A stretch of 40,192 bases of DNA from a virus: UHGV virus genome UHGV-0071970, one strand, 5' to 3'. The notes below the pieces were generated by a model that was not told the origin of the DNA, did no database searches, and saw only the letters and a program-made list of their open reading frames with translations. The position numbers and the translations under genes were made by a program. Shown here piece by piece: positions 5,028-16,505 of this stretch (within the stretch, counting starts at the first letter, position 1; each line of letters begins with the position of its first letter).

Positions 5028-5816
5028 ATGAGCAAAGAACTGTTATCCGGCACGCCGCTTAAATGGGTGGGCGGAAAAAGTCGCATCATGAACACACTGA
5101 AGGCGCATCTGCCAGAAGCAGACTGCCTGGTTGAGCCGTTTGTGGGTGGCGCATCGGTATTCATGAACACCAGTTACAAGCGTTACATCCTGGGTGATTC
5201 CAATGGTGCGCTGATTAATTTCTACCGGCAAGCCAGGGACAACACCGACAGCCTGATCGACGAGGCGAAAACCCTGTTCCTGAACCACAACAACAGGGGT
5301 GACTATCTCATCATTCGCGAAACCTTTAACGCAGAGAATCATGCCTTCCTGAACAGTAGAACGGGAATAAGCGACCGCCGTGAACTGCGACTGGCCGCCA
5401 TGTTTTTGTACCTGAACCGACACAGCTTTAACGGTTTGTTCCGCGTGAACGGAAAAGGCGATTTTAACGTGCCTTTCGGCTGCTACCGCAAGCCCTACTT
5501 CCCTGAGCGGGAAATCCGCGCATTTGCAGACAAGGCAAACAGCACCCGAACGCTGCTTATCCACGCAGATTTTAAGGATACGCTGAACTCTGCCAGTCAC
5601 CTGTTCGGCATGGGCAACACGCTTTGCGTGTACTGCGATCCCCCTTACCTGCGATTCAGTGGCCGGGACAATTTCACCGCCTACGGAAAACCATTCGATG
5701 AAGACGAGCACGTTCGTCTGAGGGCAGCGCTTGACCGCCTTTCACAGGAAACGGGCGGCATGACCAGCATCACCATCTCCAATTCCGACACACCGGAAAC
5801 CAGACGCATTTATTAG
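5028..5816 (+). CDS. dam: DNA N6-adenine methyltransferase (Dam family)
   Basis: KWVGGK, FVGGAS (AdoMet motif I) and catalytic DPPY motif in the translation. Confidence 0.85.
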   Translation: MSKELLSGTPLKWVGGKSRIMNTLKAHLPEADCLVEPFVGGASVFMNTSYKRYILGDSNGALINFYRQARDNTDSLIDEAKTLFLNHNNRGDYLIIRETFNAENHAFLNSRTGISDRRELRLAAMFLYLNRHSFNGLFRVNGKGDFNVPFGCYRKPYFPEREIRAFADKANSTRTLLIHADFKDTLNSASHLFGMGNTLCVYCDPPYLRFSGRDNFTAYGKPFDEDEHVRLRAALDRLSQETGGMTSITISNSDTPETRRIY

Positions 5817-6494: not shown

Positions 6495-6835
6495 TTTATA
6501 TCGCCGGTCCCATGACCGGATGCAAAGACCACAACAGGACGGCATTTTGCGTGGAGGACCTGAAACTTCGGTGCGCCGGAAACATCGTTCTTAATCCTGC
6601 CGTACTGCCTGACGGATTAAGCCAGCAGCAGTACATGAGTATTTGTATTCCGATGCTCATGTGTGCCGATGCCATTTACTTACTGGATGGATGGGAAGAG
6701 TCCGCTGGCGCACGGGCTGAGTACGCAATGGCGCTCAAACTGAACATGCCAGTGTCATTCCCGGAAAACCGGGCAGCCGGCGAAACCGTCGCGCAGCTGC
6801 TTCACAAATCAAAAGCCGCACAGGCGACTGAGTAA
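6485..6835 (+). CDS. DUF4406-like protein (nucleoside 2-deoxyribosyltransferase-like fold)
   Basis: N-terminus MAVIYIAGPMTG is the characteristic start of this family. Confidence 0.55.
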   Translation: MAVIYIAGPMTGCKDHNRTAFCVEDLKLRCAGNIVLNPAVLPDGLSQQQYMSICIPMLMCADAIYLLDGWEESAGARAEYAMALKLNMPVSFPENRAAGETVAQLLHKSKAAQATE

Positions 6836-7273
6836 CCGACCGGAGATCGAAACATGATTGCGCGCAGAGCTACCAACCGTCTCACAGGCTTTATTCCAGG
6901 CAAGGTTGATCATGCACTCCATCACGGGGCTGTCACTTTCCTCAACAAAGGAGAGGCGCGCAATCATGCATTCCGGGGTGAGCACGTGGCGCTGGCTAAT
7001 CAGTCTTTGATAGCTAAGCGCCTGCCATTCAGCCTTTTCAGCTCTGATAGAAAGAGAGGCAGCCATGACCTGCCACACCAGAAAGAGCACCACACTGGCG
7101 AAAACAAACGTTGCGCTGTCGCAAAAAATGAATGCGGCAACAATCGCAAGGAAAGCGCTAATCCTCAGAACCAAGGAAGCGCGACGGTGGAGAAGGCTTG
7201 TCATGTGTTCAAGCCAGTAGCTGTACCACAGGTCAAAAAGAATTTCGTAATCAGAAGGGAGCTTATCACTCAT
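6809..7273 (-). CDS. Predicted membrane protein (154 aa)
   Basis: ATG at 7273 with SD GGGGTG; two long hydrophobic segments (LRISAFLAIVAAFIF, FASVVLFLVWQVMAASL). Its 3' end overlaps the DUF4406 gene by 27 bp, convergently. Confidence 0.45.
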   Translation of the reverse strand: MSDKLPSDYEILFDLWYSYWLEHMTSLLHRRASLVLRISAFLAIVAAFIFCDSATFVFASVVLFLVWQVMAASLSIRAEKAEWQALSYQRLISQRHVLTPECMIARLSFVEESDSPVMECMINLAWNKACETVGSSARNHVSISGRLLSRLCGF

Positions 7274-7450
7274 CAGAAACACCCCGCGTATGCAGACAAT
7301 CACCAGTTGCCAGGTGATATTAATTCGCAACATTCTAACCACATCAGCACGCAACACAAAAACCGCTTGCCAGCGCTCGTCGTGTCGGGTTACATTTCCG
7401 CTGCACCTCATAAAACGGGTGCCGGGATTTCCACCCCGCTGACAAACGAA

Positions 7451-7477
7451 GCGCACAGCCGCGCCAGCGGTTTTTTT
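7451..7477 (+). terminator. Terminator-like hairpin followed by T7 (copy 1 of 2; second copy at 8280-8306)
   Basis: GCGCACAGCCGCGCCAGCGG followed by TTTTTTT; short GC stem, so weak. Confidence 0.35.
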
Positions 7478-7517
7478 GTGCGTACTGTATCGCCACGTCT
7501 TTTTCGCGTCAGAATTA

Positions 7518-7595
7518 TGGCGGGGCGTACAGGGCCGACTTCGGTCGGGCCGGTTTCTTCGTTTGCCGGTTGTGGAAACCCTGTACGTCTCGCCA
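7518..7595 (+). other. Long imperfect hairpin with internal UUCG-capped stem-loop, RNA-like (copy 1)
   Basis: TGGCGGGGCGTACAGGG pairs with CCCTGTACGTCTCGCCA (17 bp, including two G-T pairs that would only pair as G-U in plus-strand RNA); inner GGCCGAC-TTCG-GTCGGGCC stem-loop. Confidence 0.4.
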
Positions 7596-7656
7596 CCCTG
7601 AGTTTTCCACCTCTGGTTGGTGAGTTTTCAAAATTCACAAACGAAGAGGCCACACC

Positions 7657-7878
7657 ATGGCAAACCGCAAGCAACAGCGCGCCCGCGCTGAGCGTCTTCA
7701 CATCCGCAGCGAAATCAACCGCAGACTTTTCCGCGCAACACGCGTCGCACAAATCATGCATATCAACATGCTGCATGAGCGCACGCACGCGCTGTCAAAC
7801 CGTTACTGCGCTGCTGTCTTCAGCTATCTCGCCGAAGATCTGGCAGAACTGCAAAGCCTCATCAACCAGCACCGATAA
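7657..7878 (+). CDS. Small basic protein (73 aa), copy 1
   Basis: MANRKQQRARAERLHIRSEINRRLF...; SD AAGAGG 7 nt upstream. A longer antisense ORF (7408..7788) also exists, so coding strand is not certain. Confidence 0.45.
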   Translation: MANRKQQRARAERLHIRSEINRRLFRATRVAQIMHINMLHERTHALSNRYCAAVFSYLAEDLAELQSLINQHR

Positions 7879-7946
7879 ACCACATCCGGAAGCTATCCCA
7901 CACCTGCACGCGGGAGGCTTCCGCACGTCTGTTACCGGAGGTTCTC

Positions 7947-8117
7947 ATGAAGAGCGTTAAGGGACTTTCAGATATTCAGGACTTCTTTAACTGGATGTGG
8001 GCGGTGGATCCCCTGCTGGCTTCCCGCCTGAACAACTGGCACGACTATTACCGCCGCGCCTGTAAACAGGCTGCCCGCAGCGTCACCACATACGGGGCTT
8101 TCTCCTTCACCGTTGAC
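7947..8117 (+). pseudogene. Duplicated 5' fragment (about 57 codons) of the 138-aa gene at 8776..9192
   Basis: Same N-terminus MKSVKGLSDIQDFFNWMW...; the frame then runs out of the unit into repeat copy 2, giving the artefactual 280-aa track ORF 7947..8789. Confidence 0.5.
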
Positions 8118-8346
8118 TATGCAGACAATCACCAGTTGCCAGGTGATATTAATTCGCAACATTCTAACCACATCAGCACGCAACACAAAAACCGCTTGCC
8201 AGCGCTCGTCGTGTCGGGTTACATTTCCGCTGCACCTCATAAAACGGGTGCCGGGATTTCCACCCCGCTGACAAACGAAGCGCACAGCCGCGCCAGCGGT
8301 TTTTTTGTGCGTACTGTATCGCCACGTCTTTTTCGCGTCAGAATTA

Positions 8347-8424
8347 TGGCGGGGCGTACAGGGCCGACTTCGGTCGGGCCGGTTTCTTCGTTTGCCGGTT
8401 GTGGAAACCCTGTACGTCTCGCCA
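8347..8424 (+). other. Second copy of the RNA-like hairpin element
   Basis: Identical sequence at +829 bp. Confidence 0.4.
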
Positions 8425-8485
8425 CCCTGAGTTTTCCACCTCTGGTTGGTGAGTTTTCAAAATTCACAAACGAAGAGGCCACACC

Positions 8486-8707
8486 ATGGCAAACCGCAAG
8501 CAACAGCGCGCCCGCGCTGAGCGTCTTCACATCCGCAGCGAAATCAACCGCAGACTTTTCCGCGCAACACGCGTCGCACAAATCATGCATATCAACATGC
8601 TGCATGAGCGCACGCACGCGCTGTCAAACCGTTACTGCGCTGCTGTCTTCAGCTATCTCGCCGAAGATCTGGCAGAACTGCAAAGCCTCATCAACCAGCA
8701 CCGATAA
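8486..8707 (+). CDS. Small basic protein (73 aa), copy 2, identical
   Basis: Identical duplicate inside repeat copy 2. Confidence 0.45.
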   Translation: MANRKQQRARAERLHIRSEINRRLFRATRVAQIMHINMLHERTHALSNRYCAAVFSYLAEDLAELQSLINQHR

Positions 8708-8775
8708 ACCACATCCGGAAGCTATCCCACACCTGCACGCGGGAGGCTTCCGCACGTCTGTTACCGGAGGTTCTC

Positions 8776-9192
8776 ATGAAGAGCGTTAAGGGACTTTCAG
8801 ATATTCAGGACTTCTTTAACTGGATGTGGGCGGTGGATCCCCTGCTGGCTTCCCGCCTGAACAACTGGCACGACTATTACCGCCGCGCCTGTAAACAGGC
8901 TGCCCGCAGCGTCACCACATACGGGGATTTCTCCTTCACCGTGGACGGTCGTTACCGCGTGGACGTGAAAGGTGATGGTGATGGACTGGGTTTATTTCAC
9001 ATCAACGGCACCGACAGTACCGCCATCAGCTGGTCGTCATCAGAGATGGCGCTGATTCTGGAAATGACAACCCACAGCGTGGCCGTGAAAGGTATATACA
9101 CCGCAGAAGGTTTTATCGGCGAATACCAGCGCCTTCTCGTGCTGTACCGCGCGGCGTTTCAGGTGGCAACTGCCGGGGAGTGCGACGCATGA
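8776..9192 (+). CDS. Hypothetical protein (138 aa) immediately upstream of gpA
   Basis: Its stop overlaps the gpA ATG (ATGA at 9189-9192). Confidence 0.5.
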   Translation: MKSVKGLSDIQDFFNWMWAVDPLLASRLNNWHDYYRRACKQAARSVTTYGDFSFTVDGRYRVDVKGDGDGLGLFHINGTDSTAISWSSSEMALILEMTTHSVAVKGIYTAEGFIGEYQRLLVLYRAAFQVATAGECDA

Positions 9193-11702
9193 GCGACCAT
9201 AACGCACAACTGGCGTACCCGTGGAACGCCCCGCTACCGGTTATCGATCCTGAAACGTTCGGCAGAGCACAGCCAACCGCATTACGCCAGGCCATTCAGA
9301 GCTACATCAACGAGGACATTCGCATTGATGCCAGACTGGATGAAGAAACCGTCGCCTTTCTGACAACCACAGACGAAGGGAAGCGAATTAATTCGCACCT
9401 TCACCACAACGAAGAGCGTCGGATCAGACTGGAAAAACTGGCGAAGCACAAACGCGAGAATCCGCCCACGGTGGTATCGGAAGCCATGGCAGAACTTCGC
9501 GCCCTGCCCTCGTTTCTTGGCAACGTGCTCATTCGTGATCTGGCGCGTTTAAACCGCAAACAACAAAGCGCCCGCAATGAAGGCGTGAAAAACAACAACA
9601 CTCACGTGGCCGATAACTTCGTTCGCCGTGGACTGCGCACACGCCTGAAACGCATCGAACAGGTGAATGAATGCTTCGCCACGACGGCATTCAAAGCCAC
9701 CGCAGCGCGTCATCGCCTTGATGAATTACTCATGCTGCCACAACTCAACCGTGATCAAATTCAGCGCCTTGCCACACTAACGGCGGCGGCATTTTCCACC
9801 GAACTGGAACGCATATGTGATGAAGTTACTGAGCGGACAGGAAAAGGTGACGATAACCTGTTCACCTGGTTGCTGACTTACCAGCAGCTGGCGCGCATGG
9901 CGTTAAAACTGGGCGTGACCCCACCATACTGGCCGTCACTCGAGATCAGACGTGACCGCCGCACGGCACCAGACCCTGAACTGGTACCGGGTGCGGTAAT
10001 GCGTATCACCTGCGCCACCTGGTGGAACAACCAGCTGCGCCACCTCGCTGATCTCTGGCGGGAGGAATTACTGCGTGCCGCCGGAAGAGTATCGCGCAAG
10101 GCATCCCCCTACATCAGCCATGAGTCACTCCAGGAATTCCGGGAGAAACGCCAGCGCACCCGTGATTTTCTCAAAAGCTGGGACATTGAAAACGAAGACG
10201 GTGAACGCCTGAGTCTGGAGGACGTGTACTGGTCAGGGCTGGGGAATCCGCGCAACCGCCGCAACGAGATGATGGCCTGCGTCAGAGGGATGGAACAGGT
10301 CGCCGAATCGCGTGGTGACTCCGCGTTCTTCGTGACAGTGACCTGCCCTTCCCGCTTTCACAGCGTAAACGAGGACGGCAGCCTGAACCCGAAATACAAC
10401 GGTGCCACCGTGCGCGATGCCAGTGATTATCTGGTTTACGACGTCTTTGCAGCTGCAAGAAAAAAACTCAACAAAGAAGGCCTGAGCTGGTACGGGGTGC
10501 GCACCGTTGAGCCACACCATGACGGCACACCGCACTGGCACATGCTGGTATTCACCGCCCCGGACAATGAAGAACGCATCATTGAAATCATGCGTGACGC
10601 AGCAATCAAATCAGATCGCGCAGAACTGGGGAATGATATTTCTCCGCGCTTCAAGTGCGAAAAAATCGACCCGGCAAAAGGCACACCGGCAAGCTACATC
10701 GCAACCTATATTGGCAAGAACCTGGACGCCAGCACCTTTCACGACAATGACCCGAAAACCGGCAAACCTTACGCCGATAAAGAATCGGGAAAAACCATGG
10801 CGGAAACCGTGGAAAACGCCATTGCCTGGGCGAGTCTCCACCGCATCCGGCAGTTCCAGTTCTTCGGTATCCCGCCCCGCCAGGTATGGCGTGAACTCCG
10901 CCGCCTTGCCGGACAAATGGAGCGTAACCCCGCATCACCGAAGCGCCTGGACCATGACGACATTGACGCCATTCTGGCCGCCGCTGACGTGGGGTGTTTT
11001 GCCACCTACATCAACCGTCAGGGCGGCGTGCTCATTCCACGCAACCTGTACCTGATCCGCACCGCATACGAAACCGCAGATGAGGCCAACGACTACGGCG
11101 AATTCCCGCAGCGCATCTACGGAATTTGTGCCCCGTCGCTCGGCGAGCGCTACACCATCTGCACCCATCCGGACGAGTGGAAACTGGTCAGAAAAGAAGC
11201 GAAAGCCGACAACAGCACGGACGAGGATTTTGACGTTGGGGGCGGCTTCGCCGCACCTTGGACTCGTGGCAATAACTGTCCCCATGATGAAAAAACAGAC
11301 ACCGGAGAGGGTAAAACCCCACCACCGGAAACCAGGAAAGAACAAAAACTGGTCGTCCCGGGAGGTGATTTGGGTGAGTGGTTAAGGTCACTGACCCCCA
11401 CAGAGCGAAAACAACTCACCAGGCAGCTGAAAGATGCGCCATCTGACACAAAAACCGTGAAAACCGGCGGCCCCACCACGCCCGATGACGTCATACATGT
11501 GCGTACAGCATTGCCGCTGACTGACGTCACCACCACCGTAATCAAGTCGGCACTGAGCGCGACGGGCGAGGAGCTACACAGTGGCGCAGCACTTTCCGTA
11601 CACAGAGGTGCACGCGTTCGCCTGCCTGACGGGCGGATTGTGCACTGGGATGAGAAATCACGAAGCCTGGTGGCAGCAGATCAACCGGAGGTGAACCCAT
11701 GA
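9189..11702 (+). CDS. A: Replication initiation protein gpA (rolling-circle endonuclease)
   Basis: About 838 aa; tyrosine motif SYIATYIGKNLD typical of rolling-circle initiators; position and size match P2 gene A. ATG at 9189; the track start at 9180 is a GTG. Confidence 0.8.
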   Translation: MSDHNAQLAYPWNAPLPVIDPETFGRAQPTALRQAIQSYINEDIRIDARLDEETVAFLTTTDEGKRINSHLHHNEERRIRLEKLAKHKRENPPTVVSEAMAELRALPSFLGNVLIRDLARLNRKQQSARNEGVKNNNTHVADNFVRRGLRTRLKRIEQVNECFATTAFKATAARHRLDELLMLPQLNRDQIQRLATLTAAAFSTELERICDEVTERTGKGDDNLFTWLLTYQQLARMALKLGVTPPYWPSLEIRRDRRTAPDPELVPGAVMRITCATWWNNQLRHLADLWREELLRAAGRVSRKASPYISHESLQEFREKRQRTRDFLKSWDIENEDGERLSLEDVYWSGLGNPRNRRNEMMACVRGMEQVAESRGDSAFFVTVTCPSRFHSVNEDGSLNPKYNGATVRDASDYLVYDVFAAARKKLNKEGLSWYGVRTVEPHHDGTPHWHMLVFTAPDNEERIIEIMRDAAIKSDRAELGNDISPRFKCEKIDPAKGTPASYIATYIGKNLDASTFHDNDPKTGKPYADKESGKTMAETVENAIAWASLHRIRQFQFFGIPPRQVWRELRRLAGQMERNPASPKRLDHDDIDAILAAADVGCFATYINRQGGVLIPRNLYLIRTAYETADEANDYGEFPQRIYGICAPSLGERYTICTHPDEWKLVRKEAKADNSTDEDFDVGGGFAAPWTRGNNCPHDEKTDTGEGKTPPPETRKEQKLVVPGGDLGEWLRSLTPTERKQLTRQLKDAPSDTKTVKTGGPTTPDDVIHVRTALPLTDVTTTVIKSALSATGEELHSGAALSVHRGARVRLPDGRIVHWDEKSRSLVAADQPEVNP

Positions 11703-13997: not shown

Positions 13998-14789
13998 TCA
14001 CCCTATTTTTCTATGCATTTTCATGAGTTCCCTTATTAAGCTAGCATGAAAGATTGATACATCAGAAATCCTTGTATCAATAGATGAATCAATATTATCA
14101 GAAACCTTTTGCTCAAATAAATCGCAGATACCATCAAGTGACTCAATATCTTTTTCCAACTTAGAAAAACCCTTAAATAGATATAATGAATCCCTTAACT
14201 CCCCAAGCTTTGAAAATAGTTGGCTATCTAGTAATGATATAAATTCATCAGAGGGAAGCCCCATCGCATCCTTAAAATCTTCCGTAACTTCAAAAGCTAA
14301 TCCATTAATTTTAGGGAGAATAACTTCTCGTAACCAATACCCTTCGTTTATAGCTTCATTTCTTCCTTTATAATGCTGCCACAAAGGAACCCCTACAGAT
14401 GCAATTAGCGCAATAATTGAAATTGCTATAGAGTACCATTCAGGTCCTGATTCAGGAACTCTAACGATATTATAGAGATTCCCCGATGAGGTTGAGGGGT
14501 AATATCCATTCAGAACATAATTATCAGGTTTATCATAAAGAAGGTGCGGTGTAAACTTCCTTTCATAACTATTGCATAATTTTAGATCGCTATTTTTTCC
14601 AATGCATATATCAGCATTAAAAATGTTTCCACTCTTTGGTTCTATTACGTGAGACTCTGAATTTTGCGAATCCATGTTAGACGCGGTTCTTTCTAGATAT
14701 GTCGCAGAGCAAGCGGATATATTAACAAAAAAAATGACAGGCAATGCTGTCATTTTAAAAACAGAGCACAAATCAGAAGAACGGAACAT
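13998..14789 (-). CDS. Predicted lipoprotein/membrane protein (263 aa), cassette gene 3
   Basis: N-terminus MFRSSDLCSVFKMTALPVIFFVNISAC looks like a signal peptide with lipobox ISAC; internal TM WYSIAISIIALIASVGVPLW; acidic C-terminal domain. Start overlaps the upstream gene by 17 bp. Confidence 0.5.
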   Translation of the reverse strand: MFRSSDLCSVFKMTALPVIFFVNISACSATYLERTASNMDSQNSESHVIEPKSGNIFNADICIGKNSDLKLCNSYERKFTPHLLYDKPDNYVLNGYYPSTSSGNLYNIVRVPESGPEWYSIAISIIALIASVGVPLWQHYKGRNEAINEGYWLREVILPKINGLAFEVTEDFKDAMGLPSDEFISLLDSQLFSKLGELRDSLYLFKGFSKLEKDIESLDGICDLFEQKVSDNIDSSIDTRISDVSIFHASLIRELMKMHRKIG

Positions 14790-15117
14790 TTCGATGTAAT
14801 CCTCTTCTCACAGCCCTATCCAGCTCAGAAAGCATTCCTTCTTTATAATTCACTCCATCTAAAGATGTTCTGCTATAAAATTCATTCGGAGATGAAAAAA
14901 GAGGCAATATATTCTCTAGCATACCCAAAAAGTATGAGCTTGACACAACCACACCATTCGGAATTGATAGAAAAATCCTATCATTGTTATCAAAAGTAAA
15001 GCGATCTATGCCAAAGAAACTATATGCCTTGCGACCATTATCACGCCCAGCAAATAATTTCTTGCCGCCATCTTTAACTAATTTATTGAAATCTATATAA
15101 ATATTTGCCATTTTCAT
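14773..15117 (-). CDS. STAS-like (DUF4325-type) small protein, cassette gene 2
   Basis: Core RIFLSIPNGVVVSSSYFLGML fits the STAS-like DUF4325 pattern as I recall it; SD GAGGAA; coupled to the upstream ATPase gene. Confidence 0.45.
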   Translation of the reverse strand: MKMANIYIDFNKLVKDGGKKLFAGRDNGRKAYSFFGIDRFTFDNNDRIFLSIPNGVVVSSSYFLGMLENILPLFSSPNEFYSRTSLDGVNYKEGMLSELDRAVRRGLHRNVPFF

Positions 15118-15128
15118 TTACCTATTCC

Positions 15129-16505
15129 TCAGGTTCTTTGAGTTGCATTTTCCGGTAAAGGAAAACGTATATTAATCATAACTCCCGGAAAACGGGCTTT
15201 CTGCATACACTTAAGATAGGTACGATCTGGTTCAGATTCAAGCCCTGTATTATTAAATGGATAAGTGAATTTGTCACTTTGGTTATCTAACGTTTGCTTT
15301 TTCAACTTATAAGAACCATCAAAGTTTATATGTGTGCATCCAGAAATTAAAGACATTCTGATGTTTCCACTTAGTTCTTTGGATAGTTCTTTTAAACTAT
15401 CATGCATATCCTGGAAAAACTTCAATAGCTCAATGGTTCCCGTACCAGAACTATCTGTCTCCGTTTCATTTTTACAACTAACCCGCCCCTGCAAAGCAGC
15501 GACTGTAATCAAACCTTCTCTAAACATCCCTTTTTTATTTATGTGTTTTTCCACATAAGGGATTATGTGATTGTTATATGAATAATGTTCTAAAGAAAGT
15601 CCTGAAAAAGTTTCATCAATAGTTTTTCCAAAGTTAAAAACAGCTATTTCACATGTTGGCTGTTTTAAGCCATTATTTACAAACCCCCTCAAATACCAAC
15701 GCGGACGCTGCTCAAGCCCACAATGTCTCTCTGCATTATCAAGTAATTCGCCCATGCAAGATGTTAGATGGTTTTCTGCCTTGCTAACTAATTTTAATTG
15801 ATGATCACTTAGACACTCGTTTATATAATTAGTGAATTTCTCAGACATTCTATTTTTGGTATCTTGTGCAAATGCAGACGCATTTTCCTTGCCGATACTA
15901 TCAGCAGAGAATATTCTTTTCTTAGGGTTATCTTTTTTCGATTTTTCTGTTTCATCATGCACCTTCCCTGGCGTCACTTTATTTATTTCTTTAACCAACC
16001 CGATGTCACGAATAATTTCTAAATATTTTTCATCCTTCGGATAAATGCCATTAAGTTGTACTTGAGCATCTTTTAAATTTATATTGTGACGTTTGGCTGA
16101 GCTCAGTGCAACACCAAGGAGACATTCCGCACCTAAACAATGCTTTTTATTTTTAGTATAATCAAGCAAATATGATTTACGTTTACCCCTGGCAATCAAT
16201 CTAGTTACACCATGAATAAACAAAAGAGATTTTTCTGGATGATCAAACAAATCGAAACATTTAGGTATTATTACTCTATCTTCTTTGCGACGAAGAGTTG
16301 CAGTATCATATTTCTTTACGGATGAAATACTTTCAATAAAAGTAGCCACCTGACTTTTCACTGGTGTTACTTCGTCAGAAAAATGTAACCTTTCATAGGC
16401 TTTATATTTAATTCTTCTTTTATTTTTTCTCTCAACGCCTTTTAAAAAGCGAATCCAACCACGTAAAAAGCGTTTTCTTGCATCCTTTTTATCTATTTTT
16501 TTCAC
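15129..16505 (-). CDS. GHKL-superfamily ATPase, anti-sigma-factor-kinase-like, with about 240-aa basic N-terminal extension; cassette gene 1
   Basis: N-box-like GELLDNAERH and G-rich lid DSSGTGTIELL in the C-terminal half; GTG start at 16505 with SD AAGG; strongly AT-rich. Confidence 0.5.
   Translation of the reverse strand: MKKIDKKDARKRFLRGWIRFLKGVERKNKRRIKYKAYERLHFSDEVTPVKSQVATFIESISSVKKYDTATLRRKEDRVIIPKCFDLFDHPEKSLLFIHGVTRLIARGKRKSYLLDYTKNKKHCLGAECLLGVALSSAKRHNINLKDAQVQLNGIYPKDEKYLEIIRDIGLVKEINKVTPGKVHDETEKSKKDNPKKRIFSADSIGKENASAFAQDTKNRMSEKFTNYINECLSDHQLKLVSKAENHLTSCMGELLDNAERHCGLEQRPRWYLRGFVNNGLKQPTCEIAVFNFGKTIDETFSGLSLEHYSYNNHIIPYVEKHINKKGMFREGLITVAALQGRVSCKNETETDSSGTGTIELLKFFQDMHDSLKELSKELSGNIRMSLISGCTHINFDGSYKLKKQTLDNQSDKFTYPFNNTGLESEPDRTYLKCMQKARFPGVMINIRFPLPENATQRT

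Follow-up and report, generated by a model that had tools for sequence, protein, structure and literature searches.

A probably inherited tandem duplication of a C4-type immunity cassette in a P88-like Escherichia coli prophage

Organization of the repeated locus

The virus genome UHGV-0071970, a stretch of 40,192 nucleotides (nt) called the window below, carries a segment of 829 bp twice, in head-to-tail orientation, upstream of a gene for a gpA-type replication endonuclease. We consider it likely that this repeat is real and inherited, a complete C4 immunity cassette having been duplicated in tandem in a P88-like (Xuanwuvirus) prophage of Escherichia coli, an assessment that covers our explanation as a whole, namely the anatomy of the cassette, its control by a C4 antisense RNA, a single origin of the duplication, the swapping of its slots (copy 1 and copy 2), and the homotypic state of the window. 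The two units and the protein-coding open reading frames (ORFs; lengths in amino acids, aa) in and next to them are:

7289-8117, plus strand: copy 1 of the 829-bp unit, ending in a truncated gene fragment and carrying the markers C8098 and T8114
8118-8946, plus strand: copy 2 of the 829-bp unit, continuing into the intact 138-aa gene
7657-7878, plus strand: 73-aa ORF of copy 1, a marginal member of the Pfam Derepression family (P4 epsilon-like)
8486-8707, plus strand: 73-aa ORF of copy 2, identical to that of copy 1
7947-8117, plus strand: truncated 5' fragment of the 138-aa gene, 57 codons (171 bp)
8776-9192, plus strand: intact 138-aa gene (PHROG 3237), its first 57 codons inside copy 2
9180-11702, plus strand: gpA-type replication endonuclease (Pfam Phage_GPA), the gene immediately downstream of the cassettes
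6809-7273, minus strand: gene for a predicted membrane protein (PHROG 6315), outside the duplication and just to the left of copy 1

The tandem duplication had been reported in an earlier inspection of this DNA made from its letters alone (the sequence-only reading), and direct comparison of the units confirmed both their extent and the claim that they differ at two positions only, 8098 (C) versus 8927 (A) and 8114 (T) versus 8943 (G), which sit 20 and 4 nt from the end of the unit, respectively. Tandem Repeats Finder, with a longest period of 500, was silent on the repeat, and verification was made by direct comparison instead. Identity breaks off sharply at both outer edges of 7289-8946, a search for microhomology at the junction 8117/8118 found none, and an 829-bp repeat with two mismatches cannot be chance. 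As had also been proposed, the ORF coordinates place within every unit one 73-aa ORF and, of the 138-aa gene, the first 57 codons; these stay a fragment at the end of copy 1, and copy 2 leads into the intact gene, which is followed by the gpA-like gene.

RNA elements and pairing sites of the cassette

The structured non-coding segment that the sequence-only reading had placed in each unit is real and consists of an isrK-family element and a C4 antisense RNA, both of which score above their Rfam gathering thresholds. A scan for tRNA and tmRNA genes found nothing, and thus the segment is not tRNA-like. The reading had the contents of the unit right, but it missed the full C4 immunity cassette as well as the divergence of 40-64 substitutions that is usual between the copies. 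The elements of the cassette are:

7299-7318 and 8128-8147, no strand: perfect palindrome ATCACC-N8-GGTGAT, with the minus-strand membrane gene on one side and the cassette promoter on the other
7367-7396 and 8196-8225, plus strand: sigma-70-like promoter TTGCCA-18-TACATT, ~7 nt ahead of the 5' end of the isrK-like element
7403-7477 and 8232-8306, plus strand: isrK-family leader (Rfam RF01394), 64.1 bits against a gathering threshold of 50
7428-7434 (b1) and 7443-7451 (a1), plus strand: upstream sites, in the isrK-like leader
7513-7600 and 8342-8429, plus strand: C4 antisense RNA (Rfam RF01695), 82.1 bits against a gathering threshold of 45
7554-7565 (a', hairpin loop) and 7572-7578 (b', single-stranded), plus strand: recognition elements of C4, pairing with a1/b1 and a2/b2
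7604-7649 and 8433-8478, plus strand: downstream target region, with b2 at 7604-7610 and a2 at 7638-7649

Each unit is a complete immI-like cassette, in which a promoter is followed by a leader with the putative decoy sites a1 and b1, a C4 RNA with a' and b', and the targets b2 and a2, which extend over a ribosome-binding site. In a consensus scan, promoter-like sites of the unit were found on the plus strand only; the promoter of the minus-strand membrane gene, which had been located at the left edge of copy 1, thereby found no counterpart, as the scan returned no minus-strand promoter-like site in the unit. The isrK-like leader ends in an intrinsic terminator (stem 7457-7472 followed by a U-run), as expected of its family, and the C4 match is full-length in both copies (positions 1-87 of 87 of the model). 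The two recognition elements of C4 are complementary to sites upstream and downstream on the same transcript, and the downstream target a2 includes the Shine-Dalgarno sequence GAGG (7646-7649), 7 nt before the ATG (7657) of the 73-aa ORF, so that it covers part of the region where ribosomes would bind to translate the first ORF.

For comparison, 97 modules were collected from E. coli genomes and IMG/VR contigs; 46 of these were distinct, and 36 gap-free ones were used for an alignment (A1). Compensatory changes on both sides were found at 6 of the 12 pairs of a'-a2, 4 of 7 in b'-b2, 7 of 9 in a'-a1, and 4 of 7 in b'-b1, and because of this covariation across the 36 modules the pairing of a' and b' with their targets is supported. 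The observed covariation score was reached by none of 500 shuffles, and sliding the partners against each other lowered pairing from 95-98% to about 40%, the b helices being 99-100% paired in the 36 modules. Furthermore, the helices of C4 itself (116-132/177-193, 133-137/142-146, and 147-151/164-168 in A1 numbering) are 100% paired, with compensatory changes at four pairs, and the relatives keep the C4 fold of a long closing helix around two hairpins. Sequence variation among the modules is concentrated in the a and b recognition and target sites, where about 12 a-types and 6 b-types assort in combination. Predicted duplexes range from -32 to -36 kcal/mol for cognate pairs versus -14 to -26 kcal/mol for non-cognate ones.

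The palindrome at 7299-7318 and 8128-8147 is carried only by the two units within the whole window and may be an operator. An operator held in common with the CI/cox switch was considered and rejected, as the switch region (1453-1558) has a different inverted repeat.

Several further observations concern this RNA module. In one IMG/VR contig (IMGVR_UViG_2582580934_000004; L090:126-405), a 17-nt insertion in C4 creates a second a' hairpin, giving two a' loops of different type, and this C4 may be a single RNA of dual specificity. Relatives of the isrK-C4 leader that are 68-75% identical occur in many lambdoid Stx-converting phages (Stx2a/Stx2c), in Salmonella ST64B, in N15, and in 1720a-02, where the adjoining genes usually bear the annotation anti-repressor, Rha, or regulatory protein. 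Spurious "hypothetical proteins" are placed by PGAP on both strands over isrK/C4 and over the junction (L001-L003; e.g. WP_162861635.1), and isrK/C4 cassettes routinely receive such annotations.

Distribution and age of the junction

The closest named relatives of the window are phage P88 and other members of Xuanwuvirus (P88-like Peduoviridae), as judged by nucleotide similarity and by a synteny running from cox and the early genes through isrK/C4, the derepression gene, and the replication gene to P2-type structural genes; the leader-C4 region is 89.9% identical to that of P88. Known P88-like phages have a single cassette directly upstream of the replication gene; in P88 it is flanked by the early genes and the replication gene. 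About a fifth of the complete E. coli genomes (1220 of 5426) contain relatives of the cassette.

The junction between the two units is shared. A 100-nt junction sequence is 100% identical in the complete E. coli genomes G6/7, G8, SCU-172, and STEC2018-607, and ~190 bp on each side of it are identical in all four of these full-length carriers; a fifth complete E. coli genome, G1/2, has the junction with a deletion of ~80 bp just after it. Besides these five, the carriers include several draft genomes and metagenome contigs, among them an IMG/VR contig that starts 109 nt before the junction and is therefore broken inside the repeat. Carriers were found through complete E. coli genomes, IMG/VR, and a look-up of the 64-aa ORF that spans the junction, which is recorded in 49 blocks of a large assembly collection; all ten of the neighbourhoods that were read hold the duplication. 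Exact-junction scans of one-genome-per-species contigs and of metagenome contigs gave 0 matches, and among 80 IMG/VR loci, inspected over 1.5 kb on each side, no other tandem cassette duplication was seen, bearing in mind that short-read collapse would hide homotypic ones. In the comparison with single-copy relatives that had been suggested earlier, about 20 close relatives were found to have one copy.

In every carrier examined, copy 1 ends with C at the position of 8098 and T at that of 8114. Among seven single-copy relatives, the equivalent of 8098 is A in all seven, whereas that of 8114 is T in five and G in two, the T/G change being synonymous. The identical novel junction and the private variants linked to it in independent genomes are what a single origin predicts. 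Furthermore, carriers that have diverged by 40-210 substitutions agree in the junction and in both markers of copy 1, and the event therefore predates the genome of the window. The clustering of the mismatches, which had appeared odd for a simple duplication, thus loses its oddity, since both are inherited: C8098 is private to the truncated copy-1 fragment, and 8114 T/G is a standing polymorphism.

A very recent de novo duplication in this genome, with the junction-proximal mismatches as errors of the event, had been one of the two readings offered beforehand. It would account for there being only two differences in 829 bp, both within 20 bp of the junction, and the lack of microhomology fits an illegitimate, possibly error-prone join. 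Nevertheless, the identical junction in complete E. coli genomes contradicts it, as does the presence of junction and both markers in carriers that differ by 40-210 substitutions over about 2.7 kb, and 8114 T/G already segregates in single-copy phages, which makes such an origin very unlikely. The mutations at the mismatches may instead date from the original duplication event.

The second reading offered was an assembly artefact, by which only one cassette would exist in the organism, the assembler having wrongly passed through the repeat a second time or merged two strains. Over 6843 bp, the window shows no difference from an ENA metagenome scaffold (ERZ28567571 scaffold_10, sample SAMEA2580055), apparently a short-read assembly, a near-perfect 829-bp tandem repeat is handled poorly by short-read assemblers, and the contig from IMG/VR that shares the junction is cut off within the repeat. 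However, a junction sequence requires reads that contain it, the same junction and copy-1 markers occur in five complete genomes and several isolate drafts, where diverged copies assemble unambiguously, and the arrangement of two window-type copies was recovered from at least three samples with different flanks. A false junction is hence so improbable that we give it hardly any weight; where the worry partly holds is the interior identity of the copies, given the match to a metagenome scaffold.

In copy 2 of G1/2 (L004 ~5431-5450; window equivalent 8131-8211), the deletion takes away both the palindrome and the second promoter's -35 region, and its sister strains G6/7 and G8 keep the full unit there. 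A 280-aa fusion ORF (7947-8789), formed where the copy-1 fragment reads on into copy 2, was considered as a real gene and rejected, as it has no family match, is an incidentally open frame, and measures 122 aa in G1/2.

Slot types among the carriers

Comparison of the two copies within each carrier revealed a polymorphic locus. The carriers are listed below with the number of differences between their copies and the types of the slots, in the order copy 1 + copy 2:

Window, L105, L106, and L107: 2 differences; W+W
G6/7 and L095: 43 differences; W+B
L096: 40 differences; W+D
L097: 14 differences; E+B
SCU-172: 6 differences; B+B
L099, L100, and L103: 41 differences; E+W
L104: 45 differences; B+W
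STEC2018-607: 64 differences; C+D
L108: 61 differences; F+W
IMG/VR contig: copy 1 not assembled; unknown + F

The window is a homotypic W+W member of this two-cassette locus, most carriers of which are heterotypic. The differences between copies are located in the specificity sites: within a slot, C4 and its targets pair at 8-9 of 9 and 7 of 7 positions, and across the slots of heterotypic arrays at 5-8 of 9 and 4-5 of 7. Every slot examined has an intact 73-aa ORF. Two slots are themselves mixed. Copy 1 of SCU-172 (L002:3704-3966) has an a1 of type E with a' and a2 of type B, and copy 2 of the IMG/VR contig (L018:224-486) has a leader of type W with C4 and targets of type F. Such a mismatch between leader and C4 reflects either a recombination breakpoint between the two or, for the metagenome contig only, a chimeric assembly.

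Over 2.7 kb, the window differs from G6/7 only in one patch of copy 1 (7749-7927) and one of copy 2 (8256-8472), and in both patches the window equals its own other copy. Hence, either two gene-conversion events took place in a G6/7-like array, or the window is near the original duplicate and the patches of G6/7 are foreign. That concerted evolution occurs follows from the complete genome SCU-172, as its copies, which differ by 6 nt, share a recombinant haplotype found in neither copy of G6/7. Conversion tracts need homology on both sides, and therefore differences at the edge of the unit should survive homogenization; this edge sparing would explain the clustering of the two mismatches.

Discussion

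By analogy with immI of P1/P7 and with IsrK of Gifsy-1, C4 in the lysogen would pair with b2 and a2 and thereby block translation of the 73-aa gene, and polarity would lower expression of the downstream 138-aa gene and of the replication endonuclease gpA, with the a/b code defining immunity specificity. The 73-aa product, whose match to the Pfam family Derepression (PF25738) reaches 28.2 bits against a gathering threshold of 27, may on the same analogy act as an anti-repressor. The duplication would have arisen once, by an illegitimate join without microhomology, and then spread through E. coli prophages, where recombination would have swapped the specificity patch of either copy, leaving most carriers with two specificities. 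The copies of the window would have been homogenized lately, by gene conversion or unequal exchange that spared the edge of the unit, or would be near the original state. Its array would then comprise two identical, putatively working cassettes and one dead 57-codon gene fragment, and the effect in the window is probably only a doubled dose of the C4 RNA and its targets.

A number of points weigh against this explanation. W+W may be either ancestral or converted, as single-copy relatives carry mosaic haplotypes. All W+W instances are metagenome scaffolds, and the window, the least informative, homotypic form of the locus, comes from such a scaffold as well. Since a de Bruijn assembler phases only differences near unit ends, the identity of the interior could be partly a product of assembly. 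That heterotypic arrays are the rule is biased by the way carriers were found, homotypic ones being under-detected in short-read drafts. As for the regulation, C4 control in the P88-like group is predicted from sequence, and the searchable literature held no paper linking C4 to P2-like or Xuanwuvirus phages. The genes downstream of C4, namely the Derepression-family 73-aa ORF, the 138-aa ORF, and Phage_GPA, depart from the c4-icd-ant order of P1/P7; being neither icd nor ant, they imply a regulated function that differs from that in P1. Moreover, the Derepression match is marginal, with same-family matches on carriers graded "weak", and in a tblastn search of 50,697 phage records the relatives of the 73-aa protein were confined to P88-like phages and Citrobacter phage phiSM, with none in P4 or P1.

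The reservation about assembly can be taken further, to a true array with interior differences, of which the assembler collapsed the interior and phased only the ends that lie within k-mer reach. Differences restricted to 4 and 20 nt from the unit end, together with the confinement of W+W to metagenome scaffolds, are in keeping with this, and so is L107, where a variant at 7927 is present in both copies, as a collapsed node would give. Against it, heterotypic patches (at least 34 substitutions in 220 bp) form separate graph paths of equal coverage, which are not normally popped; near-identical copies exist in the complete genome SCU-172 (6 differences); and the same W+W structure came from three independent samples. 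We regard such an array as unlikely, while assembly could have erased a small number of true interior differences.

Assuming an inherited two-cassette locus, what would maintain it? Tandem duplications are prone to RecA-dependent collapse, and the array is expected to be unstable. The duplication might be a neutral, unstable passenger, its slot variety resulting from frequent recombination among common P88-like cassettes. Donors are abundant, given the frequency of cassette relatives among complete E. coli genomes noted above, many close relatives are single-copy, as expected if the array collapses easily, and the second promoter region is deleted in G1/2. On the other side, all slots examined keep C4-target complementarity (8-9/9 and 7/7) and an intact 73-aa ORF, from which it follows that both copies are under purifying selection or young, and heterotypic combinations dominate among the carriers, albeit with biased detection. 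We hold the neutral account to be quite conceivable, if somewhat improbable. Rather more tentatively, the array might be a selected "two-slot" RNA immunity locus, in which tandem C4 cassettes of different a/b specificity would exclude two superinfecting immunity groups. It is likewise a doubtful suggestion that such a prophage would be fully repressible only by a lysogen supplying both C4 types, with recombination bringing specificities from the combinatorial pool of a- and b-types into either slot and gene conversion sometimes making the slots alike, as in the window.

The cassette has several known counterparts. In the heteroimmunity of P1 and P7, specificity is set by a few bases in a' and b', as Citron and Schuster reportedly described in 1990. 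Like immI of these phages, in which C4-type antisense RNAs are the secondary immunity determinants, the locus has a C4-family RNA (RF01695) on the same transcript as its targets, a' and b' elements, and complementary sites upstream (a1, b1) and downstream (a2, b2), with one downstream site overlying the point of ribosome binding to a first ORF of small size. It differs in that the host is an integrated P2-family phage, that the site on the Shine-Dalgarno sequence is a2 and not b2, and that the cassette is tandemly duplicated, mostly with two specificities. In P1, C4 blocks translation of icd, so that expression of the anti-repressor Ant is prevented (PMC8198154). A second counterpart is IsrK-orf45-anrP of Gifsy-1 in Salmonella, where an anti-repressor has its translation controlled by a terminated leader together with a read-through transcript, and where a short RNA is processed from the stretch behind the leader (PMC4825925). 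Both loci have an isrK-family leader with a terminator that is partly read through, putatively so in the P88-like cassette, and in both the leader pairs with the downstream "orf45" region. Like Gifsy-1, the P88-like cassette would govern the translation of an anti-repressor located downstream. In contrast, Gifsy-1 regulates the anti-repressor AnrP, which is activated by the short IsrK RNA, whereas an epsilon-like gene follows here and the equivalent of orf45 scores as C4; moreover, Gifsy-1 is without duplication.

The arrangement is also reminiscent of satellite P4, in which the operon leader encodes an RNA immunity factor and the genes behind it are, in order, a derepression (epsilon/E) gene, a small ORF, and a replication gene. 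The CI RNA of P4 acts through transcription termination. P4 further differs from the phage of the window in being a satellite and in that its replication gene is the alpha primase-helicase. The P2 repressor C is counteracted by an anti-repressor, the E (epsilon) protein of P4 (PMC2995052). Finally, bacterial tandem segmental duplications resemble the array in their head-to-tail order, their novel junction, their expected loss or homogenization, and the shared derived haplotypes seen in SCU-172. Such duplications are usually transient, whereas many lineages have the present one in common, with heterologous alleles having replaced its copies individually.

The C4 and isrK RNA families, immI-type control, and epsilon-type derepression proteins are known already, while the searchable literature yielded no description of the cassette before P88-like replication genes, of a combinatorial a/b code, or of a shared duplication with two specificities. 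The leader-C4 module, which many phages of lambdoid, Stx, and N15 type have ahead of anti-repressor genes, stands, in P88-like P2-family prophages, directly upstream of the replication genes, and one prophage lineage has duplicated the whole cassette, which now exists in many specificity pairs. If true, a two-slot locus would give temperate phages a means, not described before, of broadening and evolving their immunity, and would be, provided that the pairs work as we infer, a simple natural system for studying the diversification of RNA immunity, double immunity, and the concerted evolution of tandem copies.

Other features of the prophage

The remainder of the window is that of a P2-family prophage, with an integrase (50-1057), an HTH_3 repressor (1112-1453), a Cox-like gene (1558-2082), and P2-type portal, terminase, and capsid genes. 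For the 138-aa protein, tblastn against the phage records gave no match, P88 included, and NCBIfam had none for the 73-aa, the 138-aa, or the membrane protein. Naming of the 73-aa gene by PGAP is inconsistent, being either "derepression protein" or "hypothetical". Within this gene, a stretch of 30 nt (7662-7691 and 8491-8520), which encodes the N-terminal NRKQQRARAE, is 83% identical to 9551-9580 in gpA (NRKQQSARNE).

Between the replication region and the portal gene, three ORFs of 263, 114, and 458 aa occupy 13998-16505 on the minus strand; searches with Pfam and PADLOC gave no match for them, and their position is a cargo/defence hotspot in P2-like phages (PMC9122126). Lastly, the Dam methylase ORF at 5028-5816 measures 262 aa in the window and in L105 versus 314-326 aa in related prophages, and may be 5'-truncated or frameshifted.

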